Source of the DNA: an uncultured Nitrososphaerales archaeon
GTDB lineage: Archaea > Thermoproteota > Nitrososphaeria > Nitrososphaerales > Gagatemarchaeaceae
DNA length: 64,000 bases
Assembly: GCA_963706445.1 (NCBI GenBank)
Contig: OY970160.1
Location: 896,001 to 960,000, forward strand
Direction: 5' to 3'
The translations under genes were made by a program, and so were the position numbers. This document shows, piece by piece, positions 8,017-24,108 of this stretch (positions are counted from its first letter, which is position 1; every line of letters starts with the position of its first letter). Below the pieces are notes generated by a model, which saw only the letters and a program-made list of their open reading frames with translations, had not been told where the DNA came from and made no database searches.

Positions 8017-9711
8017 CTACCTGTAGGCGGAGACATCGCCATTGACCCGGGCGATGAAGTCGCCTGTCTTGACACCGAAGGTCTGCTCTCCGGTCCGGGT
8101 CCGGACCGCGACCGTACCTGAATCCTCCTCCTTCTTCCCGACCACGAGCATGTAGGGTATCTTCTGGAGCTGGGCCTCCCTGATCTTGGCGCCCATGGTC
8201 CCGCTCGCAAAGTCTCCTTCCGCCCGGACTCCCCCCGCGGTGAGGGAGGTGAGCACCCCTCTCCCATATTCAACGTGCTCGTCGGATAGGGGGATCACCC
8301 GAGCCTGCACGGGAGACAACCACACCGGGAGCATCCCCTTGTAGTGCTCGAGCATCACCCCCATGAACCTCTCCAGCGACCCCAGTATGGTCCTATGGAG
8401 GACTATCGGGGTGTGCTCCTTGCCGTCGGAGCCCGTGTAGACGAGCTTGAAGCGCTTCGGCATCTGAAGGTCTAGCTGGAAGGTACCGCACTGCCATTCG
8501 CGGCCCAGGGAGTCTCTGATGTCGACGTCTATCTTGGGAGAGTAGAAGTTCCCCTCCTTGTCCTTGATTTCGTAGGTCCAACCCCGCAACTTCACAGTGC
8601 GGACCAGGGTGTCGGTGGCCCTCTTCCACTCCTCGTCGCTCCCCATTGAGTCGTCGGGCCTGGTGGAGATCTTCACCTTGTACTCTAGACCGAAGACCTT
8701 GTACACCCTATCCATGAGGTCGAGCATCTTGGAGAGCTCTGCCTCTGCCTGATCTTCGGTGGCTATGATGTGGGCGTCGTCCTGGGTGAGGACTTTGACC
8801 CTGAACAACCCGCTCGCCACGCCGCTGAGTTCGTTCCTGTAAAGCGGGTCGAAGGTGGCATACCTGACAGGGAGATCGCGAAAACTCCATTTTCGGGACT
8901 TGTAAACAAGGAAGGTCGAGGGACAGTTCATGGGTTTCAGCCCCATCTCCTCGTCCCCGAGGGCCGTGAGGAACATGTTGTTCTTGTAGTGCTCGTTGTG
9001 GCCGCTCACCTGCCAGAGGGCGGTGTTAGCCAGGGTCGGGGTGCTCACTTCCTGGTACTCTCCCTTGTTGAGCTCGGACCTGAGGAACCCGATGAGGAGG
9101 TTCCTCACCCGGAGGCCTTTATCGTGCCAGTAGACCATCCCTGGCGAGACTTCCTGGAAGCTGAACAAGTCCAGCCTCTCTCCGATGACCCTGTGGTCCG
9201 TGTCCGGAAGGTTCACGAAATCGCTCCGCCTGAGACGGGCCATGGCGGCCTCTGCTGTCAGCTCCCTCTTCGGCTTGGGCGGGGGGACGGGTTCGGCCCC
9301 TCCCTTCGAATAGCTCCTCGACATCTCAGCGAGCGGGTGCCCCTTCACCTTGATCTGCAGTGCCTTGGTCCATCCGAATGGCGCCCTCTTGACCTCCAGG
9401 CCTGCCAACGAAGCGCTCTTCTCCATCTCAAGTAGGAGGGCGAGGGCCTCCGAGGGCGGCGCGAGGTTCTGGCTCAAGTGAGCGAACGGATATAGCATCA
9501 CCCGGTTCGTCCCCAGCTTCCCTAGGAACTCTTTGGACTCGGCCACTGCTTTTTCGATGAGGGATTTGTCGTCCCCCTGCTCGAAGGCAGTAAAGAGGAC
9601 CACGATGTCGTCCTCCCGGACGGTCTTGGGCTCGATCTCCTCGGCCCCTCTGATTTCCTTTTTCACCGGGGTATACTCGACGAAGTCGGCGTGCATCTGA
9701 AGTATCTTCAT
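8017..9711 (-). CDS. thrS: Threonine--tRNA ligase with archaeal N-terminal editing domain
   Basis: YPFAHLS and APFGWTK editing domain; KPMNCP, YRNELSG, TQDDAH, WQCGTFQLD, HRTILGSLER. Confidence 0.96.
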   Translation of the reverse strand: MKILQMHADFVEYTPVKKEIRGAEEIEPKTVREDDIVVLFTAFEQGDDKSLIEKAVAESKEFLGKLGTNRVMLYPFAHLSQNLAPPSEALALLLEMEKSASLAGLEVKRAPFGWTKALQIKVKGHPLAEMSRSYSKGGAEPVPPPKPKRELTAEAAMARLRRSDFVNLPDTDHRVIGERLDLFSFQEVSPGMVYWHDKGLRVRNLLIGFLRSELNKGEYQEVSTPTLANTALWQVSGHNEHYKNNMFLTALGDEEMGLKPMNCPSTFLVYKSRKWSFRDLPVRYATFDPLYRNELSGVASGLFRVKVLTQDDAHIIATEDQAEAELSKMLDLMDRVYKVFGLEYKVKISTRPDDSMGSDEEWKRATDTLVRTVKLRGWTYEIKDKEGNFYSPKIDVDIRDSLGREWQCGTFQLDLQMPKRFKLVYTGSDGKEHTPIVLHRTILGSLERFMGVMLEHYKGMLPVWLSPVQARVIPLSDEHVEYGRGVLTSLTAGGVRAEGDFASGTMGAKIREAQLQKIPYMLVVGKKEEDSGTVAVRTRTGEQTFGVKTGDFIARVNGDVSAYR

Positions 9712-9723
9712 CCTAGGTCCACC

Positions 9724-9927
9724 CTACCAACGGGACCTTTCCAGGGACCTCGACTTCTTGGTCGCCTTCTTCCACGCCTTGTAATGATCTCTACAGAGAT
9801 AGACGCGCCTTCCATCCCCGCCCAGGCTGAGCCCGCTGCCACTGGTCTCAGACCGGCTGATCGACCTCTCGGCCGGGTTGCGGCACCCGGTGACGGTGCA
9901 CCCTACCCCCTTGTTCACCTTCCCCAA
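9724..9927 (-). CDS. Small basic putative Zn-binding protein
   Basis: TTG start; CTVTGC...YLCRDHYK (C-x4-C...C-x2-H); co-oriented directly upstream of thrS. Confidence 0.7.
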   Translation of the reverse strand: MGKVNKGVGCTVTGCRNPAERSISRSETSGSGLSLGGDGRRVYLCRDHYKAWKKATKKSRSLERSRW

Positions 9928-9982
9928 AGTATCCGCACGTCTCCCTCTCACTGTATATAAAAACGGCCGAGCATGGGTTCGC

Positions 9983-10552
9983 GTGCTCGACAGGCTCAGA
10001 GGGCGGCTTGAGTCGAACCTAGTGTCAGTGGGGAACCTGTTCGCCCACCTGGAGGTGTCCCCGACAACTTGGACGATTGTCGGGCTTGTGATATCCTTCC
10101 TCGCCGCGGCTGCTTACTCCACTTCGGGGTACCGGGGAGAGGCGCTTGGCGGGGTTCTCGTCCTCGTCGCGGGGTGGTTCGACATTGTGGACGGTGCCGT
10201 GGCGCGCGTCACCGGGAGGACCTCCAAGAGGGGCGCATTCATCGACTCGACCCTGGACAGGGTGGCTGAGGTGGCTGTCTTCGGCGGGATACTTGTTGGT
10301 GGCTATTCGGCCCCGCTGCTGGTACTATTGGCGATGGCCATGAGCCTCCTCGTAAGCTACACGAGGGCGAAGGGGGACGCCTTGGGGGTGAAGCTGTCAG
10401 GGGTCGGCATAGGCGAGAGGAGCGAGCGCCTCCTAATCCTCTCCGTGCTTTCAATTGCAGGGCTGGCTTACTGGGGAGTGGTGTTGGTGCTTGTCGTTGC
10501 AACATACACCTTCCTAGAAAGGACCTACAAGGCGGTAACGACGCTAGAATAA
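9983..10552 (+). CDS. CDP-alcohol phosphatidyltransferase (archaetidylinositol-phosphate synthase-like)
   Basis: DIVDGAVAR...SKRGAFIDSTLDR signature, SYTRAK, GIGERSER; GTG start about 25 nt after TATATAAAAA. Confidence 0.9.
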   Translation: MLDRLRGRLESNLVSVGNLFAHLEVSPTTWTIVGLVISFLAAAAYSTSGYRGEALGGVLVLVAGWFDIVDGAVARVTGRTSKRGAFIDSTLDRVAEVAVFGGILVGGYSAPLLVLLAMAMSLLVSYTRAKGDALGVKLSGVGIGERSERLLILSVLSIAGLAYWGVVLVLVVATYTFLERTYKAVTTLE

Positions 10553-10572
10553 CAGAGGGCCCTAGGGAACTT

Positions 10573-12174
10573 TCAGCGCATCGTAGCGCGTACTGTAGCG
10601 GGGGCGGTCCTCATGCGCTCAAAGAGCGCTGACGATATCGCCCAAGGTGCCTGTGTCATCTGAACAAACGCCGGGGACGCGAACTGACGCCCGCTAGGCC
10701 TCTTCCATCTGCTCGTGTAGTATCTTGTCAGGTTCATTGACTTCAGCGTGAAGAGACCGAATCCGAACATCGAGAGCGCAAGGAACCAGACGCCATGTAT
10801 GAAGACGAACCAGGCGAAGATGATACCCGCGAGCCCCAGAACCGCCTCGACGATCGAGTTGCGGTCGTTCCTGAGGTGCTTGAAGTAGGTCGTCTTCGTC
10901 ATCTCCTTGATGGCGCCGGACTTCGGGGTCCTATAGAGGAAGAATCCCATACGGTCGAAGACCCCATAGAAGAAGCCGATGGACCCCAGGACCAGCATGC
11001 CTCCGGAGGCGTAGCCGAGCCACGGTATCAGCGCGACGTTCTTCCAGGTCATGAGGCCCTGGACTTTGAGCGCCCACGCTCCGGACGCGAGCGAGACGGC
11101 GAACGGGACAGCAACGATGCCGACGTAGACCGGGTTGTTGAATATCGAAGTGGCGGGTGGGATGAGGTTGAAAACGACCGCAATTGTGGATAGGAAGGTG
11201 ACAAGGATCCAGCTGAGGCTTGAGAACGGGGACATCAACATGAGCAAGAGGCCCGCCTTCGTCCTCAACGAGACGCCCCGGGCTGTGATTATCGCAGTCC
11301 AGTAGTTCGCGATGCACCTCCACCACCCCTGAGAGGTCCTCCCGACCTGCTTCTTCCAGGCCTCCAGGGTGGACGGGTCTTCGCTCATTATCTTCACGTT
11401 GCTGAGGTAGATACCCCTCTTCCCGCCAAGGTACAGCTTGATCGAAATGTCCGTGTCGTCCGCAATCCTCTGGTTCGTCCATCCGCCGACCTCGAGGAGG
11501 TCCTTTGTCCTCACAAGCGTCTGACCCCCCTGGGCGGAGAAGGGGGCGTCGATTTGGTAGGACCCCATCTTCGAGATGGTGTCTCCGATGTCCTGGGTCA
11601 TGGCAAAAAGCTTGGTCACCATATTGTAGTCCCTGTTGTAATGCCCATAGCGGTAGGAGACGAAAGCGGCTCTCGGGTGGCTCTCGATGGTGTCAATCCC
11701 TTTCGTCAGGACGTCGGGGGAGACCATCGAGTCAGCGTCGAGGAGGAGCACATACTCTCCGTCGGCCAGCTGAAGGGCCTTGTTGAGGGCTCCGCACTTG
11801 AAGAACTCTCTCGAGGGCCTTCTTGAAACAAGCGTCCGTATTCCCGACCGGTTCAGGTCCTGGACCTTCGCATCTATGATTGTGGTCGTCTGATCGTTGG
11901 AGTCGTCGGCGACGACGACCTGTATCCTGTCTTTCGGGTAGTCGAGGTTCCTTACTGCGTCTAGAGACCTTTCAATGACGAATTTCTCATTGAACGTCGC
12001 GATTAGGATCGAGACGAGCGGATAGGTCTTCAGCTTGACCTCCTGCTTGGCGAGGTTCCTGGGGTACTTCATCGACGACACCAGAAGGATCACCCAGTAG
12101 TATTCGAGGGCGAGGACCGGGATTCCAATCCCCAGCGTGACAACTTCGAGAAGGAGCCAGATCGGGATAACCAT
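10573..12174 (-). CDS. Membrane GT2 glycosyltransferase (cellulose-synthase-like D,D,D,QxxRW type)
   Basis: ADDSND, KCGALN, LDADS, ADDTD, KQVGRTSQG; multiple TM helices. Confidence 0.88.
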   Translation of the reverse strand: MVIPIWLLLEVVTLGIGIPVLALEYYWVILLVSSMKYPRNLAKQEVKLKTYPLVSILIATFNEKFVIERSLDAVRNLDYPKDRIQVVVADDSNDQTTTIIDAKVQDLNRSGIRTLVSRRPSREFFKCGALNKALQLADGEYVLLLDADSMVSPDVLTKGIDTIESHPRAAFVSYRYGHYNRDYNMVTKLFAMTQDIGDTISKMGSYQIDAPFSAQGGQTLVRTKDLLEVGGWTNQRIADDTDISIKLYLGGKRGIYLSNVKIMSEDPSTLEAWKKQVGRTSQGWWRCIANYWTAIITARGVSLRTKAGLLLMLMSPFSSLSWILVTFLSTIAVVFNLIPPATSIFNNPVYVGIVAVPFAVSLASGAWALKVQGLMTWKNVALIPWLGYASGGMLVLGSIGFFYGVFDRMGFFLYRTPKSGAIKEMTKTTYFKHLRNDRNSIVEAVLGLAGIIFAWFVFIHGVWFLALSMFGFGLFTLKSMNLTRYYTSRWKRPSGRQFASPAFVQMTQAPWAISSALFERMRTAPATVRATMR

Positions 12175-12354
12175 TACGACCTACCCTCTCCCCTAGGGAC
12201 CCCTGAAAGGCACCTCGATATGTATATTTCGAAGTCAAACCCCCTCCACCCCGGTGCGACGGCGCGACTGTTTCCCAGCCAGGCCAAGACACTAATAGTG
12301 TTGAGAAGGGCTGCCGATGTCCCGCCTGATGAAAGGGGAGGGACAGGCACAAAT

Positions 12355-13530
12355 TTGGCTTCGAAAGGGGTATACTTCGCAGTCTTCGGATCGGGACTGG
12401 GGCACGTCACCAGGATCCTGGAGGTCTCGAAAAGGTTCCCGGAGGCCGATTACAAGTTCAGGTATTCCTCGTCTGGACAGGGGTACTCGTTCCTTGAGGC
12501 CATGGGGATGAAAGGGCTCACAGAACGATGCCCCGCCCTCGACGTGGAATGGGCGGTGGGCGGGGGGTTCTCCTCCCACAAGATCCTCCCCAGCTTCCCG
12601 TTCATGCTCAACAAGTTCATGCAGCAGGTAGCCTTCGAGAGGGAGGCAATCAGAAGGTTCAATCCGGAGGTCGTGGTGAGCGACTCGAGGCTGTCCGCCA
12701 TCCTCGCAGGGAAGTCGGAGTCATACCCGGTGGTGACCATGTTGAACCAGTTCAAAGTGCTGTTTCCCCCTAGGTTCCGCAACTCGATGGGGAAGTATTA
12801 CGAGAGGATTGCGGCGGACTCCCTCGGGCTGATGTGGTCCCTGAGCGATCGGGTACTGGTCACCGACCTCCCTCCTCCGTATACGATCGCCGAGGAAAAC
12901 GTCGTGGACTCGGAGGTCTCCAGAGTAGTCGAGTTCGTGGGTTTCACCGCACCAAAGATCAGGACCAGCCAAGAAGGCCTTCAGAAAGTCAAGCGTACCC
13001 TTGCACTGGACGACAGGCCCCTGGTCTTCTGTCAGGTCAGTGGGCCCGAGGCCACAAAGGGGAGGTTCGTGGAGACTGTCCTCGCATCGGCGGAAGAGAT
13101 CTGCAAGGCGTACAACCTGGTCGTCTCACTGGGACGTTCGGGAGGCTCCGCCACGCCGAGAAGGCTAGCCAGCGGGGGGTGGCTCTTCGATTGGTGCCCT
13201 GTCAAGGACGAGCTTTTCGAACTATCCTCGGTCCTCGTCGCCAGGGCGGGCCACAGCACCATAGGCCAGTGCATCGACAATGCGAAGCCGGCTGTGCTCG
13301 TGCCGATCCACAACCACCCCGAGCAGATAAGCAACGCCGAGAAGTTCAGCCGACTCGGGCTGGGGGTCGACATCAGGTCAGAGAAGCTCACCCCTCAGAA
13401 TCTTTTCCAAGCGATAGAATCATGCTTCACCGACTCGTCATACAAGATGAAGGTCGAGGCTGTCCGGACGATTTCGAACCGCTTCGATGGTGTGGCTAGG
13501 TGCGCCGAAGTCATAAACTCCTACGCCTGA
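12355..13530 (+). CDS. GT-B glycosyltransferase (GT28/MurG-like)
   Basis: GSGLGHVTR, VVSDS, ARAGHSTI, HPEQISNA; TTG start at 12355. Confidence 0.85.
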   Translation: MASKGVYFAVFGSGLGHVTRILEVSKRFPEADYKFRYSSSGQGYSFLEAMGMKGLTERCPALDVEWAVGGGFSSHKILPSFPFMLNKFMQQVAFEREAIRRFNPEVVVSDSRLSAILAGKSESYPVVTMLNQFKVLFPPRFRNSMGKYYERIAADSLGLMWSLSDRVLVTDLPPPYTIAEENVVDSEVSRVVEFVGFTAPKIRTSQEGLQKVKRTLALDDRPLVFCQVSGPEATKGRFVETVLASAEEICKAYNLVVSLGRSGGSATPRRLASGGWLFDWCPVKDELFELSSVLVARAGHSTIGQCIDNAKPAVLVPIHNHPEQISNAEKFSRLGLGVDIRSEKLTPQNLFQAIESCFTDSSYKMKVEAVRTISNRFDGVARCAEVINSYA

Positions 13531-13539
13531 AGCGCAAAC

Positions 13540-14229
13540 CTACTCTGAGATGAAACGTTCGAACTCGGCCAAAGAGCCGGGGGTCCCAATCTCGTAGAAG
13601 CGGTCGTACACAGGGAAGGCTTTCAGCTGCCTGTCTTTGATCAGGGCACCATAGAACTCCTCCTCGCCGCAGACCTTGCGTTCAGGGATTGCCCCGAGAG
13701 CCTCTTTCCGAAGGGCCGACACCCCGAAGTTGATCCAATGCATGCCGCTTAGGCTCCTCTTCTTGTCGTAACGGACAACCATCCCCGACTCGACGGTCAG
13801 GTCGCTCCTCCCATACCTTCCGTCGTTCCTGAACGCGACCATGAGCCCGAGCCTATCCGACTTCAGGAGTGTCTCCATAATCCGGCCATATGGCGCTCTG
13901 AGGTAGGCGTCTCCGTAGGTGACGAAAAAGGAGCCCCCAAGCAGTTTCTCGGCTCGCTTCAGGGCCCCGGCCGGGCCCAGGAGTTCTGGACCGTCTCGGC
14001 TGTATTCGACCTTGACCCCGAATCTGCTGCCGTCTCCGAGGTGATCCTCTATCTTCTCCCCGCGGTACCCGATGCACAGCACTAAGTCTCTGACCCCTGA
14101 CTTTTTCAGGAGTTCCACCTGATAGTCTATGAACGGCTTTCCAAGGACGGGGGTGAGGGCCTTCGGGAGCGAGTCAGTTATCGGTTTGAGCCTGGTGCCG
14201 AGCCCGCCGGCGAGGATTACCGCTTGCAA
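13540..14229 (-). CDS. hddC: Sugar-1-phosphate nucleotidyltransferase, HddC-like
   Basis: ILAGGLGTRL...PKAL, EIGTP; follows hddA. Confidence 0.75.
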   Translation of the reverse strand: MQAVILAGGLGTRLKPITDSLPKALTPVLGKPFIDYQVELLKKSGVRDLVLCIGYRGEKIEDHLGDGSRFGVKVEYSRDGPELLGPAGALKRAEKLLGGSFFVTYGDAYLRAPYGRIMETLLKSDRLGLMVAFRNDGRYGRSDLTVESGMVVRYDKKRSLSGMHWINFGVSALRKEALGAIPERKVCGEEEFYGALIKDRQLKAFPVYDRFYEIGTPGSLAEFERFISE

Positions 14230-14249
14230 CTAGAACCATTCCGACATGC

Positions 14250-15233
14250 CTAGATGTTGTAGATTACCTTGCTCCCTTCGAAGTCGAACCTGAACTTCAT
14301 TTCGACGAGGCCTTCCTTGGCCAGGACCGACCTTAGTTGGCTCCTCCCCTCCTCACAGTAGAGCATGAGGAAGCCCCCGCCCCCGGCGCCCACCAGCTTG
14401 CCCCCAAGCGCCCCGCTCTTCTTGGCGAGCGAGTACAATCGATCTACGCCTTCGGTAGTCATGGATTCTGTCACCCCTCGCTTCACATTCCAGTGCTCAT
14501 CCAGCAGCTCCCCGAACTTTCTCAGGTCTCCCGATTCAAGGGCCCTGCTGCTCTCCATGCCGATGGACTTTATGGCATGCATTTTCTCGGCCGCCCCGTC
14601 GGTCCCCGAAACGAGCTTTTCCTGCTGGCTGCCGAGGATTTCGTTGGCGCTGCGTTTTATCCCGGTGTAGAACATCATTATCCCGTGCTCCAGTTCGTCG
14701 AGGACCTCCGGGCTTATGCTCAGCTCTCTGGGGGTGACCTTCCCGCTCCGGTCTACCTCGTAGGACCTTATCCCCCCAAGGCTCGCCGCGTACTCGTCCT
14801 GCTTCCCCGACGGCTCGTGTAGCCGCGTCATGGCGATATGGCATGCCTCTTCTGCTATCTGCTCGGGGGTCTTGAACACCTTCTGGTGAGCATATAGAAC
14901 GTTAAGCAGCCCCACGCAGAAGCTCCCAGACGAACCTAGGCCCGTCGCTGCCGGGACATCCGCCAGTGAAACGATCTCAATCTTGTCCTTCCATCCGAGT
15001 TGCTTCAAGGTCTCCCTGACTATCGGGTGGCGGACAGAGTCTGCCGAATCGACAATCTCAGTCTGCGAATAGCTGACCCTGATTCCCGGCTCGAACCTGT
15101 CGTTAACGACGATGTGCATGTACTTGTCCACTGCCCCAGAGACGAAGTAGCCGCCGTGCTTTGAGTAGTAAGCCGGCAGGTCGGTCCCCCCTCCTCCGAG
15201 GGAGAGCCTGAAGGGGGTCCTCGAGACTATCAA
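14250..15233 (-). CDS. hddA: D-glycero-alpha-D-manno-heptose-7-phosphate kinase (GHMP family)
   Basis: SRTPFRLSLGGGGTD, GLGSSGS, GKQDEY, GKLVGAGGGGF. Confidence 0.88.
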   Translation of the reverse strand: MIVSRTPFRLSLGGGGTDLPAYYSKHGGYFVSGAVDKYMHIVVNDRFEPGIRVSYSQTEIVDSADSVRHPIVRETLKQLGWKDKIEIVSLADVPAATGLGSSGSFCVGLLNVLYAHQKVFKTPEQIAEEACHIAMTRLHEPSGKQDEYAASLGGIRSYEVDRSGKVTPRELSISPEVLDELEHGIMMFYTGIKRSANEILGSQQEKLVSGTDGAAEKMHAIKSIGMESSRALESGDLRKFGELLDEHWNVKRGVTESMTTEGVDRLYSLAKKSGALGGKLVGAGGGGFLMLYCEEGRSQLRSVLAKEGLVEMKFRFDFEGSKVIYNI

Positions 15234-15341
15234 TGAAGAGTTGGTCGCCCGTTTCCTGCCCGATTCTGCCAGGATATAACCCCGAGGCGCTGCTATGTAA
15301 CGACAAGGATAATAGTCGAAATCTGGCCACGCCTTGACGGA

Positions 15342-15959
15342 TTGGGCCGCACCGACGAGTATCTAGGCGAAGTGGCGAAGATCGCGGACGGGTTAGACAG
15401 GTCGGCGATAGACCGGGCCATCGGGATCCTGTACTCCGCGTGGAAAGAGGACAAGCAGGTCTTTGTCATAGGTAACGGAGGGAGCGCGTCGACGAGCACT
15501 CACTTCGCCTGCGACCTGAACAAATGGGTTTCGGACAAGGCGGACAGGAAGTTCAGGGCCTTCGCCCTGGTGGACAACATCCCGTTCGTGAGCGCCCTCA
15601 CGAACGACAACGGGTGGGGGGACGTCTACGTCGAGCAGCTCCGGAACTTCTTTAGGAAAGGGGACGTGCTTGTCGCCATAAGCGTCCACGGTGGCTCAGG
15701 GAGCGACAAGGCAGGTCCCTGGTCGCAGAATCTCCTTAGGGCAGTGAAGTACGTCAAGGACAACGGAGGGAAGGTGGTCGGTCTTTCGGGATTCGATGGT
15801 GGGGTGTTGAAGACGGCGGCGGACGCGTGCGTGGTGGTACCGGCGGAGTCAACCCCGCACGTCGAGGGGATGCATCTGGTGCTCACTCACCTTATGAGCG
15901 AGCAGCTCCGCGGGATGATTTCCGCCGGGGGGCCCCGGAAGGCTGCCGAGAAGTACTGA
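15342..15959 (+). CDS. gmhA: Phosphoheptose (sedoheptulose-7-P) isomerase, SIS domain
   Basis: GNGGSASTSTHFACD, SALTND, GLSGFDGG, HVEGMH. Confidence 0.88.
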   Translation: MGRTDEYLGEVAKIADGLDRSAIDRAIGILYSAWKEDKQVFVIGNGGSASTSTHFACDLNKWVSDKADRKFRAFALVDNIPFVSALTNDNGWGDVYVEQLRNFFRKGDVLVAISVHGGSGSDKAGPWSQNLLRAVKYVKDNGGKVVGLSGFDGGVLKTAADACVVVPAESTPHVEGMHLVLTHLMSEQLRGMISAGGPRKAAEKY

Positions 15960-16560
15960 TCGTCTCCTTCGAAACCTTCTCCACGAGCGCCGGGACTTCC
16001 TTCAGGGAGGGCACTAGGTAGTCCGGTCTGCCGTCCTGCTTTTCCATCATCTTCGTCAGCAGGGTAGTCATGTGGGCGACGAGGACCGTCATGCACCCCG
16101 CACTTCTCCCGGCCTTTACATCGACGAAGCCGTCCCCGACCATGAACGAATCTGCAAGGTCAAGATTGAAGTCCTCGGCGGCCCTGAAGAGCAGGCCCGG
16201 CTTCGGTTTCCGGCAGTCGCAGACGACCCTGTACCGCTTGACAAGGGCCTCCGGGTGGTGCAGGCAGTAGTATTCCCCGTCGAAATTGACCCCGCGGTCG
16301 GACAAAGCCTTTCGAAGCTTGGCGTTCATCCGGTTAAGCTCAGCGAGGCTGAACTGCCTCTTGGCCACTCCGGGCTGGTTTGAAATCACAATCACCTTGT
16401 AACCCAACCCCTGGAGTGCCTTCACAGATTCAGCGACGAAAGGGAAGACTCTCATCTGGCGTGCCGACGACGGGCTCGAGATCTGGCCCTCTTCATCGTT
16501 GTAGACGAGGTCGTTCAGGACCCCGTCCCGGTCCAGGAAGACGGCCTTGGCTGCTCCCAT
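15892..16560 (-). CDS. gmhB: Heptose-1,7-bisphosphate phosphatase (HAD-IIIA)
   Basis: FLDRDGVLN, ISNQPG, CLHHP...CDCRKPKPG, MVGD. Confidence 0.92.
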   Translation of the reverse strand: MGAAKAVFLDRDGVLNDLVYNDEEGQISSPSSARQMRVFPFVAESVKALQGLGYKVIVISNQPGVAKRQFSLAELNRMNAKLRKALSDRGVNFDGEYYCLHHPEALVKRYRVVCDCRKPKPGLLFRAAEDFNLDLADSFMVGDGFVDVKAGRSAGCMTVLVAHMTTLLTKMMEKQDGRPDYLVPSLKEVPALVEKVSKETISTSRQPSGAPRRKSSRGAARS

Positions 16561-16672
16561 TAGATCGTTCGAGGAACCGCGACGGGGGCGACCCTTAACT
16601 CCTTCCCCACAGGCGGTGGCTTTCCTTATATCCGCCCCGGCCTAAGGTTCCGCCGTAAAGTTCCCCGGAGAT

Positions 16673-17395
16673 ATGAGAATGCCAGACATATTCCTTGACA
16701 CTGCGTCCCTCGACGAATGCGTGGAGCTTACGAAGTGGGGAATTGCGGACGGAGTGACGACGAACCAGAAGATCTTTTTGTCAGAGGGAGGGGTCGACTT
16801 CAAGAAGCGGGTCATCGACATCTGCAGGGTCGTCAACGGCCCTGTAAGCGTGGAGACCACCACGAACACGGAGGCTGAGTTACTGTCCGAGGCCAGGGAG
16901 TACGCATCCTGGCACAAGAGGGTGGTCGTGAAGGTGGCCATGACGGCCGACGGAAGGGGGCTTAAGGTCGTCCATCAGCTCGCCAAGGAAGGCATCCGGA
17001 CGAACATGACCCTCATGATGACCTTCAACCAGCTGATCATGGCGGCGAAGGCGGGCGCAACCTATGTTTCGCTGTTCTACAACAGGTCGAAGGAGGCGGG
17101 GGAGGACCCTGTGCATATCATCAAGGACTACGTTTCCACCGCCAAGGAGTCGAAGCTGAAGGCTCGCCTGATAGTAGGGAGCATCCGGACTCCAGAGGAC
17201 GTCGCCACGGCGTTCGCTGCGGGAGCACACATTGTGACCATCCCGACGAAGATCATCAGGCAGATGCCATTCAATCAGAGGACCGAGGAGACCCGTGAAG
17301 AATTCGACAAGGCCTGGCAGGAGTTCCTCGCGATTCATGGCGGTGGGGCGTCCGTGAAGGTAGCTCCACGGCAGAGAAGAAGCGGTCGAAAGTAG
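16673..17395 (+). CDS. tal: Transaldolase family protein (divergent)
   Basis: FLDTA, GVTTNQ, GPVSVE, VVVK (Schiff-base Lys), TNMTL, AGATYVSLF. Confidence 0.85.
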   Translation: MRMPDIFLDTASLDECVELTKWGIADGVTTNQKIFLSEGGVDFKKRVIDICRVVNGPVSVETTTNTEAELLSEAREYASWHKRVVVKVAMTADGRGLKVVHQLAKEGIRTNMTLMMTFNQLIMAAKAGATYVSLFYNRSKEAGEDPVHIIKDYVSTAKESKLKARLIVGSIRTPEDVATAFAAGAHIVTIPTKIIRQMPFNQRTEETREEFDKAWQEFLAIHGGGASVKVAPRQRRSGRK

Positions 17396-17467
17396 GCACT
17401 CCCGATCTGCGGCAATCCGTCTGCCTTGGGAGACGCTTTTAATCACACCCGGGCGGCGCTTGATTGA

Positions 17468-18424
17468 ATGAAGAAAGCCCTGGTCACCGGAGGCCTGGGG
17501 TTCATCGGGAGCCACCTCACTGATAGGCTGCTAGACGACGGGTGGAAGGTATTAGTCCTCGACAACCTTTTGACCGGTCGGCGCTCGAATTTGGCCCACC
17601 GCAAGGTAGACAAGGCCTTGGAGGTGGTTGAGGGGGACATCAGAGACACGAAGACCCTGGTGAAGGAATCAAAGGGTTGCGACGCAGTCTTCCACTTCGC
17701 GGCCCACGCCCTCATGCGCGTGAGCCAGGATGACCCTGCGGCCGACCTTGAATACAACCTCGGCGGAACGGTCAACGTCCTGGAAGCCGTCGCAAAAAAC
17801 GAGGTACCCGATCTTGTGTTCGCTTCAACGTCGGCGCTCTACGGCGAGGCAAAGGTCACTCCGACCCCCGAGTCATATTCGGGCACACAGACGTCGTTTT
17901 ACGGCGCGGCGAAGCTTGCCGGGGAGGCGTTCGCATCAGCCTTCGTCCAGTTCCATCCCACCAAGTTCTGGGCATTCAGGTTCGGGACCGTCCTGGGGGA
18001 GAGGTGCAGGAGGGGAGCCATCTGGGATTTTGAGCACAAGCTGGAGAAGAACCCAAGGAAGCTGGAGATCCTAGGAGATGGGAAGCAGATCAAAGACTAC
18101 CTATATGTGAAGGACTGCGTGGACGGCGTGATGTTAGGATACCGGAAGAGCTCCAGGCCCGTGAACACATTCAACCTCGGGCTCACGGAGAAGACGACCG
18201 TGGACGACGTAGCCGACATAGTAATTGACTCCCTGGGTCTGAAGAACGTCAGAAGGAAGTACACCGGAGGGCCTAGGGGGTGGAAGGGAGACAACCCTGT
18301 CGTCCAGCTCTCTTCGGAGAAGCTCACACGACTCGGATGGGAGCCGAAAGTGTCTCCGCGGGACGCCATCAAGACCACGGCCCTGTGGACGGCCAAGGAG
18401 ATCGGCTGGAAGGCGCAAGATTAG
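17468..18424 (+). CDS. NAD-dependent epimerase/dehydratase
   Basis: TGGLGFIG, ASTSALYG, YGAAK. Confidence 0.92.
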   Translation: MKKALVTGGLGFIGSHLTDRLLDDGWKVLVLDNLLTGRRSNLAHRKVDKALEVVEGDIRDTKTLVKESKGCDAVFHFAAHALMRVSQDDPAADLEYNLGGTVNVLEAVAKNEVPDLVFASTSALYGEAKVTPTPESYSGTQTSFYGAAKLAGEAFASAFVQFHPTKFWAFRFGTVLGERCRRGAIWDFEHKLEKNPRKLEILGDGKQIKDYLYVKDCVDGVMLGYRKSSRPVNTFNLGLTEKTTVDDVADIVIDSLGLKNVRRKYTGGPRGWKGDNPVVQLSSEKLTRLGWEPKVSPRDAIKTTALWTAKEIGWKAQD

Positions 18425-18425
18425 C

Positions 18426-19394
18426 ATGGCGAAGTTCGCTGTGACGGGGGGAGCGGGGTTCCTGGGGAGCCACATCGCAGCCAGGCTGATCGGGGAGGGG
18501 AACGAGGTGGCGATTATCGACGACTTTTCGGCTGGGACCCTTCAGAACCTGAAGGACGTGGGCGTCACCCAGAAAGCGGTCACGGGTGACCTGAAGGAAT
18601 ACGACTTCGCGAAGCGATCCATGAAAGGCGCAGACACAGTATTCCACTTCGCCGCCGAGGTGGGGAGCGTCGACTATCTTCACAGGACGAAGGGGAGGGA
18701 GCTCGCGGCCATGCAGGCGAACGTGGTCATAGACGCCAACGTGTTCAGGGCCTGCCTGGAGGCAGGGGTCAGCACCCTGATTTACGCTTCGAGTGTTTCG
18801 GTGTACCCATTCGACAGGCAGCAGGGAGGTCAAACGAAGTTCAGGGAGGAGGACTCGGAGGTGAAGGTGAACCCCGACGGCGGCTATGGGTGGTCCAAGC
18901 TACTGGCCGAGAAGCAGCTCTCGTACATGCCCGACGTCGCATCTGGGGTGGCTAGGATTTTCCACGCCTATGGGAAGAACATCTACCTCCGGCCAGAAAG
19001 GAGCCAGGTGATAGCCTCCCTGATGCGAAAGGCCATCCGCTACCCGAGGGAGGACTTCGTGGTGTGGGGGGACGGGAACCAGAGGCGCTGCTTCGTCTAC
19101 ATCGACGACGTACTCGACGCGTTGTGGGCCCTCATGGGGCATGTCCGGAAGAAGGGGAATCTCACGGTGAACATAGGCTCGACTGAGGAGTACACCGTCC
19201 TCGAGCTGGCGAAGAGCATCATAGAATTGACCGGGAAGAAGATACCGATGAAGTTCGACGTGTCGAAGCCTTCGGGGGCCTTGAACAGGATGCCCGACCT
19301 GACGTTCGTAGGGGAGACCTTGGGGTGGGGGCCGAAGACGCCTTTCTCAGAAGGGCTCCCAAAGACATTCGACTGGGTTTCGAGCAGAGTCTGA
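18426..19394 (+). CDS. NAD-dependent epimerase/dehydratase, GDP-mannose 3,5-epimerase-like
   Basis: TGGAGFLG, ASSVSVYP, PDGGYGWSK, VWGDGNQRRCF. Confidence 0.85.
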   Translation: MAKFAVTGGAGFLGSHIAARLIGEGNEVAIIDDFSAGTLQNLKDVGVTQKAVTGDLKEYDFAKRSMKGADTVFHFAAEVGSVDYLHRTKGRELAAMQANVVIDANVFRACLEAGVSTLIYASSVSVYPFDRQQGGQTKFREEDSEVKVNPDGGYGWSKLLAEKQLSYMPDVASGVARIFHAYGKNIYLRPERSQVIASLMRKAIRYPREDFVVWGDGNQRRCFVYIDDVLDALWALMGHVRKKGNLTVNIGSTEEYTVLELAKSIIELTGKKIPMKFDVSKPSGALNRMPDLTFVGETLGWGPKTPFSEGLPKTFDWVSSRV

Positions 19395-19473
19395 GGCGCG
19401 CCTGCCCCCGGCTCGGCGTCGCCCCTGAACCGAAGCATATTTCTACGGAACTCAAAGAGCATGGAAGCTCAAA

Positions 19474-20211
19474 GTGGTGGACAAGCCGGGCCGAAGGAAG
19501 AGGAGGACCATCCCATGGAAGAAGATCGCTTCATGGGCCGTGGTGGCTATACTGGTTGTAGCAGCTGGGTGGTACATCTATTCCAACTACATCTACAAGG
19601 CGCCGCCCAAATATGCCCGGATAGATACTAGCGACGGGACAATCTACGTCGTCCTCTACCCTCAGTGCGCCCCTCAGACCGTTGCCAATTTCGTAAACCT
19701 CGCGAATTCGGGGTTTTACAACGACCTCGCCTGGCACCGAATCGTTCAGGGATTCGTAATACAGACGGGCGACCCCCACTCTAGGGGAGGGCTCAACAGC
19801 ACGAGATCGAGCTGGGGGGAGGGGTTCACGAACGCGACGGGTTTGGCTACATCTGACCTTGCCGCCAACATGACCGTCCCCCTTGAGGTGAGTCGATGCC
19901 CGAATCTCGGGACCTACGAGGGTTATCTGGGGGTGGCCAGGGAGGGTAACTTCACGACCGGTCTGAACACGGGTAGCACCCAGTTCTTCATCAACCTGTC
20001 CAACAGCACGACAAACCTCCAGATAAGCGGACACTACACCGTCTTCGGGAAGGTCATATCAGGTTGGAGCGTCGTCCAGGCGCTTGCCAAAGCCCCCATC
20101 TGCCAGGCCCCGACGTGCCCGAAAAGCTGGCCTGCGGACGAACCTCTCCCGGCGGTATTCATCAGTGATGTCGTGATACTGAACGGACCGCCTAACGTCA
20201 CGACAGCTTAG
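19474..20211 (+). CDS. Membrane-anchored cyclophilin-type peptidyl-prolyl isomerase
   Basis: N-terminal TM helix; APQTVANF, WHRIVQGFVIQTGDP, GSTQFFIN, YTVFGKV. Confidence 0.9.
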   Translation: MVDKPGRRKRRTIPWKKIASWAVVAILVVAAGWYIYSNYIYKAPPKYARIDTSDGTIYVVLYPQCAPQTVANFVNLANSGFYNDLAWHRIVQGFVIQTGDPHSRGGLNSTRSSWGEGFTNATGLATSDLAANMTVPLEVSRCPNLGTYEGYLGVAREGNFTTGLNTGSTQFFINLSNSTTNLQISGHYTVFGKVISGWSVVQALAKAPICQAPTCPKSWPADEPLPAVFISDVVILNGPPNVTTA

Positions 20212-20215
20212 CAAT

Positions 20216-20491
20216 CTACCACATGCGTCTTTCGTTCTTGGCTCGGACCTTGACTATGCCGTAGTGGACGCTGCAACTAATGCAATAGTAGCGAACCTGG
20301 GTGGGAGCCGCGATATACGCTCCCGCTGCCCTAAGCTCTCGTGCGAGGGTCGGTTCCACGAGGCTCAGGCGCGTGGTGACTTTCTTCGCCTTGTCTCTCG
20401 GCACGCTTGCCCCGCAGTTGCTACAGTAGATGGTGTCGCTCCGTCCCTTCCCTCCCTTGGAACGACCGCGACTCTTTCTCTTCTTAGTCAA
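20216..20491 (-). CDS. rps26e: 30S ribosomal protein S26e
   Basis: KKRKSRGRSKG, CSNCG..VPRDKA, YCISCSVH..VKVR. Confidence 0.95.
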   Translation of the reverse strand: MTKKRKSRGRSKGGKGRSDTIYCSNCGASVPRDKAKKVTTRLSLVEPTLARELRAAGAYIAAPTQVRYYCISCSVHYGIVKVRAKNERRMW

Positions 20492-20543
20492 ACTTTGAAA
20501 CTGTCATTTTCTCTTCCCCTTTAAACCTATACGAGGTCCAGGG

Positions 20544-21479
20544 TCATTCTTTCTTGTAAGGTACTGCGAGGGCGGCAGGAGGCCTGAGACGCTTCGAAGC
20601 TATCCCAAGGGTCGCCACCGTCGCAAGGTATGGAAGCATCAGGACGAGAAATATGTACGACGTCGCTAGGTGCCCTTGGACGACATATTGGACCCCCACG
20701 GTCATGCCGAAGAGTATGCTCATGCCAAGTACATAGGCCGGTTTCCACCCGCCTGCGATTACAGCCGCCAGCGCGATGAAAGCTGGAATCACGGATCCCG
20801 TTGGGTCGGGGACGAAACTCGAGTTGAAATCTACCGTGAAATAGGCGCCTCCGAGCCCAAGGAAGGCTCCTCCAATGGCCGTGGCGATAATCCTCGTCCT
20901 TGCCACGTCGAGGCCTGCGGCTTCTGCAGCCTTCGGGTTCTCACCTACGGCTCTTATATGAAGACCAAGCTTCGTCCTCCCGAGGAAGATGAATACGAGG
21001 ATGGGGAGAATGAACATCACTGCCATCAGGGGGCTGACTGTGAGCGTCAGTCCGTTGGACAGGCCGCTGATGGTGGCGATGGGGAGAACGGTGAACCTGG
21101 GAAGAGGCGTTCCGTCGATTTGGAAGTATTTTTGGAGGAGGACGTAGGTGAAACCCACCGCGAAAATGTTGATTCCTATCCCGGCGATGACCTGATCGAC
21201 ATGGACCTTTGTCGCAAAGACCGCCAGTATCAGGTTCAACAGCACTCCTACGGCCATTGCCGCGACAAGCGCGATGTACGGAGAGCTCTGGCCTGCAGAC
21301 GGGCCCAGGGTGTAGTTCACCGCCGCTGCGGTGAAGGCGCCGATGAGCATCACCCCGTATATTCCGATGTTCAGGATGCCGGACTTCTCTGTAATGAGCT
21401 CCCCGTCGGCGGCTATCGCTATGGGGATCGCTTTCTGCAGCCCGAAGACGACCAGGAGCACAACGAATGTTAGATCCAT
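20544..21479 (-). CDS. Nucleoside/simple sugar ABC transporter permease
   Basis: EKSGILNIG, GLHIRAVGENPKAAEAAG, LPYLAT, PAALAVPY. Confidence 0.9.
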   Translation of the reverse strand: MDLTFVVLLVVFGLQKAIPIAIAADGELITEKSGILNIGIYGVMLIGAFTAAAVNYTLGPSAGQSSPYIALVAAMAVGVLLNLILAVFATKVHVDQVIAGIGINIFAVGFTYVLLQKYFQIDGTPLPRFTVLPIATISGLSNGLTLTVSPLMAVMFILPILVFIFLGRTKLGLHIRAVGENPKAAEAAGLDVARTRIIATAIGGAFLGLGGAYFTVDFNSSFVPDPTGSVIPAFIALAAVIAGGWKPAYVLGMSILFGMTVGVQYVVQGHLATSYIFLVLMLPYLATVATLGIASKRLRPPAALAVPYKKE

Positions 21480-22549
21480 TTCTTCCTCCCCAGAAGCCTA
21501 AGGATGCGCCTGCTGAGGTAGGGCGCTGACATGAAGAGAACGATGATTCCTTGCATGGCCCAGACTATGTAGATGTTCTGAAAGACAGCGGCGGTCCCGG
21601 CGGCAAGAATCGACACGAATATTCCCGTGAAGATCGACCCTACCGGATTGTTCGCGGCCATCAGAGCGACTGCTATGCCTGCGAACCCCTCCCCACCGAA
21701 CCAGCCGAAAATGAAACCGTCTTGGTAGCATGCAGTCAGGTAGCACCCCCTCCCCACGCTGAGGATGTCCCCCGCACCGGCGAGGCCAGCCAGCGCCCCG
21801 CCTATCACCATTGCGATGACCTTCGTTTTTCTCGGGTTGATGCCCTTGGATTCGGCCTGTGTCGCACCCAGCCCTGTGGCTCTTATGCTATAGCCCAAGG
21901 TCGTCCTCCTCAGGAAGAAGGCGATCCCGATTGCAAGAGCGATGGCGACGACTACCATGATAGACGTCGTGAAGTAAGGGAGCGTAGGCAGAGTGGCAGC
22001 AGCGCTGATGTCCACCCTGTCGTAGATGGCAACATCTGGCACCCTGGGTACGATGGCGACGAGGAGGAGAAAGGTGGCAAAGGACGCGGCGACGAAGTTC
22101 ATCATGATTGTCGAGACTATGGCCGACGCGTTCCTGTATGCTTCGAGGAGTCCTGAAATCGACGCCCAGAGCCCTCCCACCGCGCATGCGGCGATTACGG
22201 CCACCAACGCCCAAAGGCCCGGAGGAAGGGGCACGAAGACTACGATGAGCGCGACTACGATCCCCCCGAGGGTCGCCTGTCCCTGCCCTCCCACGTTCCA
22301 GATGCCCGCCTTCCCGGGTATCAGGAAAGCCAGTGCGAGTAGTATGTAGGAGCTCATGTAGCTCAATACGGTGGACTGGCCATACTGGGTCCCGAGAGCG
22401 CCTGTGAAGATCTCCTGGAATATGGTCAGAGGATTGAGCCCGAAGATTAACATCAAGACCGAGCCGGCTACTAATCCGAGCCCAAGGGCGATGAGAGACG
22501 GGAGCGCCGACTTGAAGGCTCCAGTAATGGCCGCGCTTCTACCGCTCAC
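21470..22549 (-). CDS. Nucleoside/simple sugar ABC transporter permease
   Basis: WNVGGQGQ, STIMMN, GFAGIAVALMAANNP. Confidence 0.9.
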   Translation of the reverse strand: MSGRSAAITGAFKSALPSLIALGLGLVAGSVLMLIFGLNPLTIFQEIFTGALGTQYGQSTVLSYMSSYILLALAFLIPGKAGIWNVGGQGQATLGGIVVALIVVFVPLPPGLWALVAVIAACAVGGLWASISGLLEAYRNASAIVSTIMMNFVAASFATFLLLVAIVPRVPDVAIYDRVDISAAATLPTLPYFTTSIMVVVAIALAIGIAFFLRRTTLGYSIRATGLGATQAESKGINPRKTKVIAMVIGGALAGLAGAGDILSVGRGCYLTACYQDGFIFGWFGGEGFAGIAVALMAANNPVGSIFTGIFVSILAAGTAAVFQNIYIVWAMQGIIVLFMSAPYLSRRILRLLGRKKWI

Positions 22550-24063: not shown

Positions 24064-24070
24064 ACTCCCC

Positions 24071-24084
24071 ACAAAAAGAAAGGG
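24071..24084 (-). terminator. Putative U-rich terminator between the binding-protein gene and the ATPase
   Basis: Minus strand CCCTTTCTTTTTGT just after the BMP stop codon. Confidence 0.35.
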
Positions 24085-24108
24085 TAGGTGAGGAGCCCTC
24101 ACCTATCG

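Follow-up and report, generated by a model that had tools for sequence, protein, structure and literature searches.

A transaldolase-linked gene cassette predicted to build and activate a higher-carbon sugar in an uncultured Nitrososphaerales archaeon

Results

Eight genes in a nearly gapless run

We analysed a window of 64,000 nucleotides (positions 896,001 to 960,000 of contig OY970160.1) from the genome of an uncultured Nitrososphaerales archaeon, a single contig of 1.82 Mb. Eight open reading frames (ORFs) follow one another almost without gaps at 12355-19394 of this window, and their families were assigned by Pfam and NCBIfam searches. An earlier note, made from the DNA alone, had placed eight contiguous genes here and read them as a full sugar-activation route of the Gmh/Hdd kind that has its own transaldolase; the ORFs and family matches confirm the gene set, and the families found support the route. 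The eight genes are:

12355..13530, + strand: GT-B glycosyltransferase (MJ1255/GT28-C/GT1-like); PF04101 53.6 bits, TIGR00661 (MJ1255 family) 74.5 bits
13540..14229, - strand: sugar-1-phosphate nucleotidyltransferase (HddC/MurU/ManC-like); PF00483 80.2 bits
14250..15233, - strand: GHMP anomeric kinase, HddA/WcbL-like; HddA NF049969 154.4 bits
15342..15959, + strand: SIS-fold ketose-phosphate isomerase, GmhA-like; gmhA TIGR00441 90.3 bits
15892..16560, - strand: HAD-IIIA sugar-bisphosphate phosphatase, GmhB-like; GmhB NF006506 147.2 bits, TIGR00213 128 bits
16673..17395, + strand: cassette-type transaldolase, presumed first committed enzyme; PF00923 136.2 bits
17468..18424, + strand: SDR1, an extended short-chain dehydrogenase/reductase (SDR), assigned from PDB matches to the archaeal guanosine diphosphate (GDP)-sugar 4-epimerase subgroup (GDP-Gal4E)
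18426..19394, + strand: SDR2, a putative tailoring enzyme of the extended SDR type; best PDB match 120.3 bits

The curated NCBIfam cut-offs are 600 bits for HddA, 300 for HddC, 209.45 for gmhA, 178 for GmhB, 149.6 for TIGR00213 and 245.95 for TIGR00875. None of these equivalog cut-offs is reached by the cassette proteins (HddC model 99.5 bits, the others as listed), which are therefore divergent relatives rather than certified equivalogs. The eight genes point in both directions and therefore do not form a single transcript. The isomerase and phosphatase genes are convergent, and their 3' ends overlap by 68 bp (15892-15959). The last 25 or so residues of the phosphatase form a basic, low-complexity tail; alignments of this 222-residue protein with its nine syntenic relatives span 199-206 residues in six cases and 193, 211 and 220 in the others.

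The longest ORF for the GT-B enzyme begins at ATG 12220, with an alternative TTG at 12355. A start at TTG 12355 puts the GxGxGH motif at the N terminus, and alignments with the nine syntenic relatives cover 387-392 residues in six and 362, 403 and 406 in the other three (a tenth relative, held by locus L008, aligns over 437). Motif placement and alignment lengths make the TTG start the more plausible one.

The cassette recurs in other archaea

A transaldolase search of species-representative genomes yielded 13 related loci. By record title, nine belong to a Nitrososphaerales, Nitrosopumilales, Nitrosopumilaceae or Thaumarchaeota archaeon, two to a Candidatus Micrarchaeota archaeon and two to an 'uncultured archaeon'. 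These titles, together with the archaeal threonyl-tRNA synthetase editing domain and the archaetidylinositol-phosphate synthase encoded next to the cassette, bear out the archaeal host named in the earlier note. The same eight genes stand in the same order at nine of the 13 loci (L003-L009, L011, L012), with protein identities of 54-91%; the remaining loci end at contig edges (L010, L014) or hold rearranged subsets (L013, L015). Given this recurrence of order, the grouping of the eight genes is more than chance.

We also drew an even pick of 401 genomes of the phylum, defining a cassette-type transaldolase as one that scores above 300 bits against the alignment of its clade (A1). It occurs in three of the 401, namely the window genome and two genomes of other families (G029, G323); the transaldolase matches of the other 59 genomes that have them score about 185-210 bits against A1, like the housekeeping copy of the window genome (200.4 bits). 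G029 carries a tight operon in the order kinase-isomerase-phosphatase-transaldolase-nucleotidyltransferase-SDR1, and tblastn recovers this six-gene order in G323. This colinear operon is thus known from two Thermoproteota families besides that of the window (L048, L049), and the core is also seen as a tight operon in 'Micrarchaeota'. The conserved core is six genes: kinase, isomerase, phosphatase, transaldolase, nucleotidyltransferase and SDR1. SDR2, confined to the Nitrososphaerales versions, and the GT-B glycosyltransferase are additions of the Nitrososphaerales lineage.

The cassette transaldolase is 70% identical to one from a 'Micrarchaeota' genome as against 57% to one from Nitrosopumilaceae, and from this, with the occurrence in only three of 401 genomes, we conclude that lateral transfer took place at some stage. 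The long residence proposed in the earlier note thus holds in so far as synteny extends across the relatives, but has to make room for such a transfer. Its claim of host-like codon usage agrees with the composition found: the GC content is flat over the window, and GC content at third codon positions is 0.76-0.83 for the four cassette ORFs of at least 250 aa, compared with 0.72 +/- 0.10 for 38 other long ORFs.

A second, specialised transaldolase

A profile search of the window genome finds two TAL_FSA genes, the cluster copy at 134.7 bits and another at 201.7 bits. The latter (G000:C1:432026-432661) has a transketolase (429568-430332; 174.3 bits) about 1.7 kb upstream of it and is a housekeeping transaldolase separate from the cassette, a check that the earlier note had raised. 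The two share 36% identity (77/212 residues). This makes the cluster enzyme a second copy, and one that the supply of sedoheptulose-7-phosphate does not require here, since a housekeeping transketolase-transaldolase pair is present. This redundancy counts against one rival explanation, according to which the product is GDP-D-glycero-alpha-D-manno-heptose, epimerised by SDR1 and SDR2, and the transaldolase only supplies sedoheptulose-7-phosphate from fructose-6-phosphate and erythrose-4-phosphate.

The cluster enzyme falls below the TIGR00875 cut-off (170.2 versus 245.95 bits) and matches the small (subfamily 4) transaldolases of T. maritima (1vpx, 145.7 bits) and Thermoplasma acidophilum (3S0C, 128.6 bits), whose length and fold family it shares. 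The positions that we take to be catalytic (Asp, Glu, Schiff-base Lys, Asn, Thr, Ser, Phe and Arg) are identical to those of 1vpx in the alignment, and Phe stands where fructose-6-phosphate aldolases (FSA) presumably have Tyr, as expected for a transaldolase. These classical residues speak for the rival explanation just named. D9, T29, N31, K87, N111, T113, S133, F135, R138, S170 and R172 are invariant or nearly so in A1. Around the phosphate-binding arginines, however, the motifs are changed, from SPF[VI]GR to S[LIF]F[YFW][NRG]R (SLFYNR in the window) and from ASIR to GSIR; a further change turns TTNP[ST]L into TTNQKI.

The same division appears in a FastTree phylogeny of 134 rows, comprising the two window-genome transaldolases and, among the 150 best representatives at 50% identity, the 132 of at least 195 aa. 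The cluster transaldolase falls in a clade of 34 rows that share the altered motifs (Shimodaira-Hasegawa-like support 99), and the housekeeping copy in a clade of 60 with classical motifs (support 99). A mere supply enzyme would be unlikely to stand in an old clade of its own, with altered motifs at the phosphate site.

One relative has additional genes of this kind. G005, the metagenome-assembled genome of L003, has a full-length bacterial-type transketolase (444.8 bits, 683-aa frame) in addition to an archaeal split transketolase and a small transaldolase, and it is adjoined by a 271.6-bit transaldolase in a 949-aa frame; this pair (C1:14436-17510) could be contamination or a transferred operon.

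Fusions to pathway enzymes

We took a census of proteins of 421-2000 aa that match the cluster transaldolase at E <= 1e-20 (n = 26). Nineteen of them share 50% identity or more with it, and every one of these is a fusion with a pathway enzyme (a GHMP kinase in 13, a HAD phosphatase in five and a nucleotidyltransferase in one). Among the seven with identities of 41% or less, two are fused to transketolase domains and one to HPPK, and four have no other Pfam family. At L013, a single protein of 548 aa joins transaldolase and kinase; next come the isomerase, the phosphatase and a SIS-nucleotidyltransferase fusion, and a gene for a class V fructose-1,6-bisphosphatase adjoins. The cassette enzyme thus differs from the small transaldolases 1VPX and 3S0C in its separate clade, its changed motifs and the fusion of its close relatives to sugar-activation enzymes rather than to transketolase.

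The mixed orientation of the genes might suggest that the transaldolase is an unrelated gene of central metabolism lying beside a heptose cluster by chance. We consider this hardly credible. The linkage is kept in Nitrososphaerales, in two other Thermoproteota families and in 'Micrarchaeota', a separate housekeeping copy exists, and the fusions and conserved linkage already contradict the idea.

An isomerase with a lengthened phosphate loop

The AlphaFold (AF2) model of the cassette isomerase has a mean predicted local distance difference test (pLDDT) score of 89.3, and its best fold match is GmhA (2x3y; template modelling scores 0.81/0.85). Its phosphate loop, ISVHGGSGSDKAGPWSQN, is nine residues longer than the canonical IS-TSGNS; the model is less certain in this region (mean pLDDT 62 at residues 121-130). 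We take this loop to hold the terminal phosphate of the substrate in GmhA. Of the GmhA metal and catalytic set, which we presume to be His/Glu/Gln/His (PDB titles name H64Q, Q175E and D61A mutants), both His are kept, Glu is replaced by Asp and Gln by Glu. The cassette isomerase therefore has neither the GmhA active-site set nor the short S-T-S-G-x-S loop.

The long loop is present in 15 of 15 transaldolase-linked isomerases aligned (window, L003-L009, L011-L013, L015, L048, L049). It is absent from four transaldolase-less Thermoproteota clusters (L058-L061), from a Rhizobium plasmid cluster and from the SIS gene that neighbours a hygromycin B phosphotransferase gene on a Streptomyces plasmid (L064); the SIS-kinase-HAD cluster there, which we take to be the hygromycin heptose route, has no transaldolase annotated. 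The Asp/Glu metal-site variant was considered as a second mark of transaldolase linkage and rejected, as it also occurs in transaldolase-less settings (L058, L061, L013b, the Rhizobium plasmid and the Streptomyces plasmid SIS gene).

As these loci had been found through the transaldolase, we avoided that bias with a sample led by the isomerase: 301 genomes of the phylum to which the 'Micrarchaeota' genome belongs, of which 76 have a match, and from these the 30 best loci. By loop type they divide as follows:

Window-type long loop: 4 loci, one of them cut off by a contig edge, with a transaldolase in all 3 that could be evaluated
Related long loop (SV[GN]GG...IS.N): 6 loci, with a transaldolase in 6 of 6
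Different insert (L099): 1 locus, with a transaldolase in 0 of 1
Short loop: 19 loci, with a transaldolase in 1 of 19 (L109)

A transaldolase thus accompanies nine of nine evaluable long-loop loci versus one of 19 short-loop loci, eight of the latter having been viewed over about +/-8-10 kb and 11 over +/-1.5 kb only. The association between loop and transaldolase is strong, and neither the pairing with an isomerase whose loop has been rebuilt nor the fusions to kinase, phosphatase and nucleotidyltransferase would be expected of an enzyme that merely supplies sedoheptulose-7-phosphate.

Epimerase-like proteins and the nucleotide

SDR1 matches archaeal promiscuous GDP-sugar 4-epimerases over its full length (196-247 bits): 3ehe of A. 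fulgidus at 247.3 bits, 8rdg (8RDG/H/I; PhGal4E_1 in 8RDG/8RDH) at 246.4 and 3aw9 of P. calidifontis at 196, with 3icp at 211.5. The catalytic YxxxK is present as YGAAK. The available text of PMC12171764 places 8RDG/H/I, 3EHE and 3AW9, the P. calidifontis enzyme, in the GDP-Gal4E subgroup and does not name 3ICP among its members. Judged by these matches, SDR1 belongs to this archaeal GDP-sugar 4-epimerase subgroup. The substrates studied for such enzymes, as far as that text relates, are GDP-hexoses and GDP-L-fucose (PMC12171764), and activity of SDR1 on seven- or eight-carbon sugars is predicted.

The best PDB match of SDR2 is GDP-mannose 3,5-epimerase (GME; 120.3 bits), followed by UDP-glucuronate decarboxylase (107.9 bits). 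According to the part of PMC8787198 available, the acid-base couple of GME is Cys145/Lys217. In the alignment of SDR2 with the plant enzyme 8sg0, C145 (the Cys of SAC) faces Ser and, by manual count, K217 faces Gln. We therefore rejected an assignment of SDR2 as GDP-mannose 3,5-epimerase, the likeness being one of fold with the Cys/Lys couple missing. Of the two epimerases in the earlier note, SDR1 is upheld by its nearness to the archaeal 4-epimerases, whereas SDR2 resembles an epimerase in fold only. With GDP-sugar 4-epimerases as the nearest structures of SDR1 and a GDP-mannose epimerase as that of SDR2, GDP is the best guess, and the nucleotide is probably GDP, from GTP.

The nucleotidyltransferase itself matches the NCBIfam models of MurU (111.9 bits), archaeal GlmU (109), HddC (99.5) and Rv ManC (91.2), and in the PDB 4y7t (96.7) and 6jq8/5xhw ('6-deoxy-D-mannoheptose pathway protein'; 83.6/83.5). 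Since all four models match, the base cannot be assigned by score. The top scores, on a uridylyltransferase model (MurU and 4y7t), leave some room for another higher sugar, either a stereoisomeric octose or a nonose made with arabinose-5-phosphate or a hexose-6-phosphate as acceptor, or one carried on a nucleotide other than GDP. Acceptor and nucleotide are both ones that we infer, and the tailoring genes of related loci differ greatly, L013 having a B12-radical SAM enzyme and a second kinase beside FkbM methyltransferases. Both SDRs, on the other hand, point to GDP-sugars, and by Pfam the cluster encodes no enzyme supplying an unusual acceptor; we regard such a product as improbable.

Kinase, phosphatase and glycosyltransferase

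The kinase matches heptose kinases in the PDB (4usk 137.7, 3k85 130.9 and 4n3o 126.9 bits), and the phosphatase translation carries the DRDGV, CxH...CxC and RKPxPG motifs. Insertions in the phosphatase were considered as a mark of transaldolase linkage and rejected, the L013 protein being without them; the E. coli phosphatase is, we assume, the one with the longer zinc loop.

The solved relatives of the GT-B enzyme are distant and all GT1 enzymes (OleD, 34.8 bits). OleD, CalG2 and YjiC presumably act on lipophilic small molecules, and the clusters on bacterial plasmids include a gene annotated as a lysylphosphatidylglycerol-synthase transmembrane domain protein. By analogy, the acceptor of the GT-B enzyme may reasonably be supposed to be membrane-bound, either a lipid or a lipid-linked glycan.

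Surroundings of the cassette and related islands

Upstream of the cassette lie genes for a GT2 glycosyltransferase, archaetidylinositol-phosphate synthase and an archaeal-type threonyl-tRNA synthetase, and downstream those for a cyclophilin (PPIase) and an ABC transporter. Further features are:

10573..12174, - strand: GT2 glycosyltransferase, 533 aa, possible accessory, divergent from the GT-B gene; PF00535 80.9 bits, PF13632 79.7 bits
15234..15341, no strand: intergenic stretch between the divergent kinase and isomerase genes; putative A/T-rich TATA-like words, by eye
16561..16672, no strand: intergenic stretch between the divergent phosphatase and transaldolase genes; a possible TATA-like TTATAT begins 47 bp 5' of the transaldolase ATG, by eye

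The archaetidylinositol-phosphate synthase (155.4 bits, cut-off 180) and the GT2 enzyme, which is of the cellulose-synthase/PgaC type, together occupy 9878-12174. Their pairing is syntenic in the closest relatives L003 and L004 only, and we therefore do not count the synthase as a cassette member; the GT2 gene adjoins the GT-B gene at three of the nine syntenic loci (L003, L004, L007).

Metagenome runs from peat and soil, belonging to four studies, contain DNA that is almost the same as that of the cluster; one of the four studies may be the source. In peat RNA libraries (three runs of one study), short near-identical contigs of 157-313 nt lie on parts of the genes for the GT2 and GT-B enzymes, the kinase, the isomerase, the phosphatase, SDR2 and the PPIase, which is no proof of transcription; none falls on the transaldolase, SDR1 or nucleotidyltransferase genes, gaps that carry no weight.

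Several related loci were met in the course of these searches. At L013 (G001, 'Micrarchaeota'; 8836-20273) the cassette sits inside a larger sugar-tailoring island, which holds, besides the class V fructose-1,6-bisphosphatase and the two fusions described above, three methyltransferases of the FkbM type, a second GHMP kinase and two radical SAM enzymes, one of them B12-binding and the other of the SPASM type. A search of plasmids with the cassette transaldolase returned ordinary Firmicutes-type genes. The kinase, searched in the same way, matched 86 plasmid records, of which 58 are Rhizobium plasmids with a transaldolase-less relative; that of Rhizobium phaseoli (L062; NZ_CP013528.1, 25999-42970) has a short isomerase loop and a 649-aa protein that joins nucleotidyltransferase, HAD phosphatase and a P-loop kinase-like tail. 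A plasmid of Lawsonia intracellularis, a cultured animal-associated bacterium, carries SIS-HAD-transaldolase...kinase-nucleotidyltransferase (L063; NZ_CP107055.1, 130348-147319); the transaldolase there belongs to another type, and the isomerase again has an extended loop.

Discussion

We propose that the eight genes form one pathway that builds a higher-carbon sugar, activates it and passes it to a glycosyltransferase; its substrates, nucleotide, order of steps and acceptor are conjectural. The cassette transaldolase would first move the three-carbon dihydroxyacetone unit of fructose-6-phosphate (or sedoheptulose-7-phosphate) to an aldose phosphate, giving the pathway its own ketose phosphate. 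As acceptor we commit to ribose-5-phosphate, which would lead to GDP-octose, as it does through LmbR/N/P/K/O/M. The GmhA-like isomerase would convert the ketose phosphate into an aldose phosphate, the HddA-like kinase would phosphorylate C1, and the GmhB-like phosphatase would then take off the terminal phosphate. The nucleotidyltransferase would form the GDP-sugar, SDR1 would epimerise C4 and SDR2 tailor it further, and the GT-B enzyme would finally move the sugar to a membrane-bound acceptor to yield a surface glycoconjugate, not an antibiotic.

Two known systems use these enzyme types, and the earlier note had already named both heptose and octose as candidate products. GmhA, HddA, GmhB and HddC convert sedoheptulose-7-phosphate into GDP-D-glycero-alpha-D-manno-heptose. 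This pathway, in Aneurinibacillus thermoaerophilus, Campylobacter jejuni, Burkholderia pseudomallei and Yersinia pseudotuberculosis, shares its four enzyme families with 13540-16560 of the window, as well as the logic of downstream SDR tailoring and glycosyltransfer; the cassette departs from it in the fixed transaldolase, the longer isomerase loop, the Asp/Glu metal ligands and the scores below cut-off. The second is the lincosamide GDP-octose pathway of Streptomyces lincolnensis and S. caelestis, which has the same six enzyme types, including a transaldolase of its own, LmbR or CcbR, the kinase LmbP and a GalE-type SDR; the likeness is one of enzyme type. Its later formation of lincosamine proceeds through dehydration by LmbL/Z and transamination by LmbS. 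For lincomycin and celesticetin, Table 1 of PMC12945683 lists R as transaldolase, N as isomerase (C-terminal domain), K as phosphatase, O as nucleotidyltransferase and M as epimerase. LmbR joins a three-carbon unit of fructose-6-phosphate or sedoheptulose-7-phosphate to ribose-5-phosphate, forming octulose-8-phosphate, as stated in PMC5854111, which cites Sasaki 2012. The lincosamide isomerase is a domain of LmbN, whereas that of the cassette is free-standing; the cassette has a GT-B gene attached, its host is an archaeon, and it holds no antibiotic genes. By Pfam, no aminotransferase, dehydratase partner or amide-forming or condensation gene is found among the 15 ORFs scanned at 8017-24102.

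Our tentative preference, held with somewhat less than even confidence, is that the product is a GDP-octose made in the Lmb-like way from fructose-6-phosphate and ribose-5-phosphate. It is favoured because the transaldolase is redundant for sedoheptulose-7-phosphate, forms a separate clade with changed motifs, is fused to pathway enzymes in other lineages and has a long-loop partner. To our knowledge, backed by Table 1 of PMC12945683 and by PMC5854111, the lincosamide GDP-octose route is the only characterised pathway using these four enzyme types that includes a transaldolase, and we know of none among the characterised GDP-heptose clusters. A GDP-heptose, the product in the rival explanation introduced above, is nonetheless a serious possibility. 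Its rationale is that a transaldolase of its own frees a mobile cassette from the pentose-phosphate flux of the host, which would be an advantage to cassettes that pass between lineages whose central metabolism is poor. The best named relatives of the activation enzymes are those of heptose pathways (HddA, gmhA, GmhB and HddC models, the PDB heptose kinases and GmhA), and transaldolase-less heptose clusters occur in five of the 401 phylum genomes, so that heptoses are used by related archaea. The genome G323 (99% complete), however, combines the cassette with RpiA, shows neither a transketolase match nor another transaldolase, and thus has no evident source of the erythrose-4-phosphate that a heptose would require.

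Several observations weigh against an octose. The highest scores of all four activation enzymes fall on models and structures from heptose pathways, and the likeness to LmbR and LmbN is judged by enzyme type. The argument drawn from a missing transketolase has little force. The 'Micrarchaeota' genomes G001 and G002 have neither transketolase nor RpiA (a weak PF00456 match is a 2-oxoacid dehydrogenase E1; PF00676, 293 bits). G179 (L059; 99% complete) has a canonical GmhA-HddA-GmhB-HddC cluster, yet no transketolase or transaldolase was detected, which makes the lack of these enzymes a poor guide to the supply of sedoheptulose-7-phosphate; the source of this sugar in G179 is unexplained by the genes detected. 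As to the isomerase, the Asp/Glu variant, being present in transaldolase-less clusters, gives no information on the substrate, at L109 a short-loop canonical isomerase goes with a transaldolase, and at L099 a long loop of another kind occurs where no transaldolase is found. The link between loop and transaldolase may also reflect the shared descent of one cassette, related genomes not being independent. We know of no octose in any archaeal glycan, nor was one found in a search of full-text literature. Coverage of that literature mostly excludes subscription journals, and within it we likewise found no paper on a heptose or octose in Thaumarchaeota and no description of a transaldolase-linked Gmh/Hdd cassette outside lincosamide biosynthesis.

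New in this work are the check for a housekeeping copy, the definition of the transaldolase clade, the fusion census, the long-loop signature with its counter-examples and the subgroup assignment of SDR1. Should the product be a heptose, the cassette would still define a distinct transaldolase subfamily hard-wired to sugar activation, together with a variant isomerase. For group I.1c-like soil Thaumarchaeota, with their uncharacterised envelopes, it would also offer a first set of candidate genes for an unusual glycan or glycolipid. If it is an octose, the automated 'GDP-manno-heptose' annotations of such cassettes would be wrong, and the long-loop isomerase and the SLFYNR-type transaldolase would serve as sequence signatures separating eight-carbon from seven-carbon pathways. 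Eight-carbon aldoses, so far known only as lincosamide precursors, would then be ordinary units of surface glycans or glycolipids in soil Thaumarchaeota and DPANN archaea, and a class of sugar known from one antibiotic family would prove to be widespread on the cell surfaces of uncultured archaea and bacteria.

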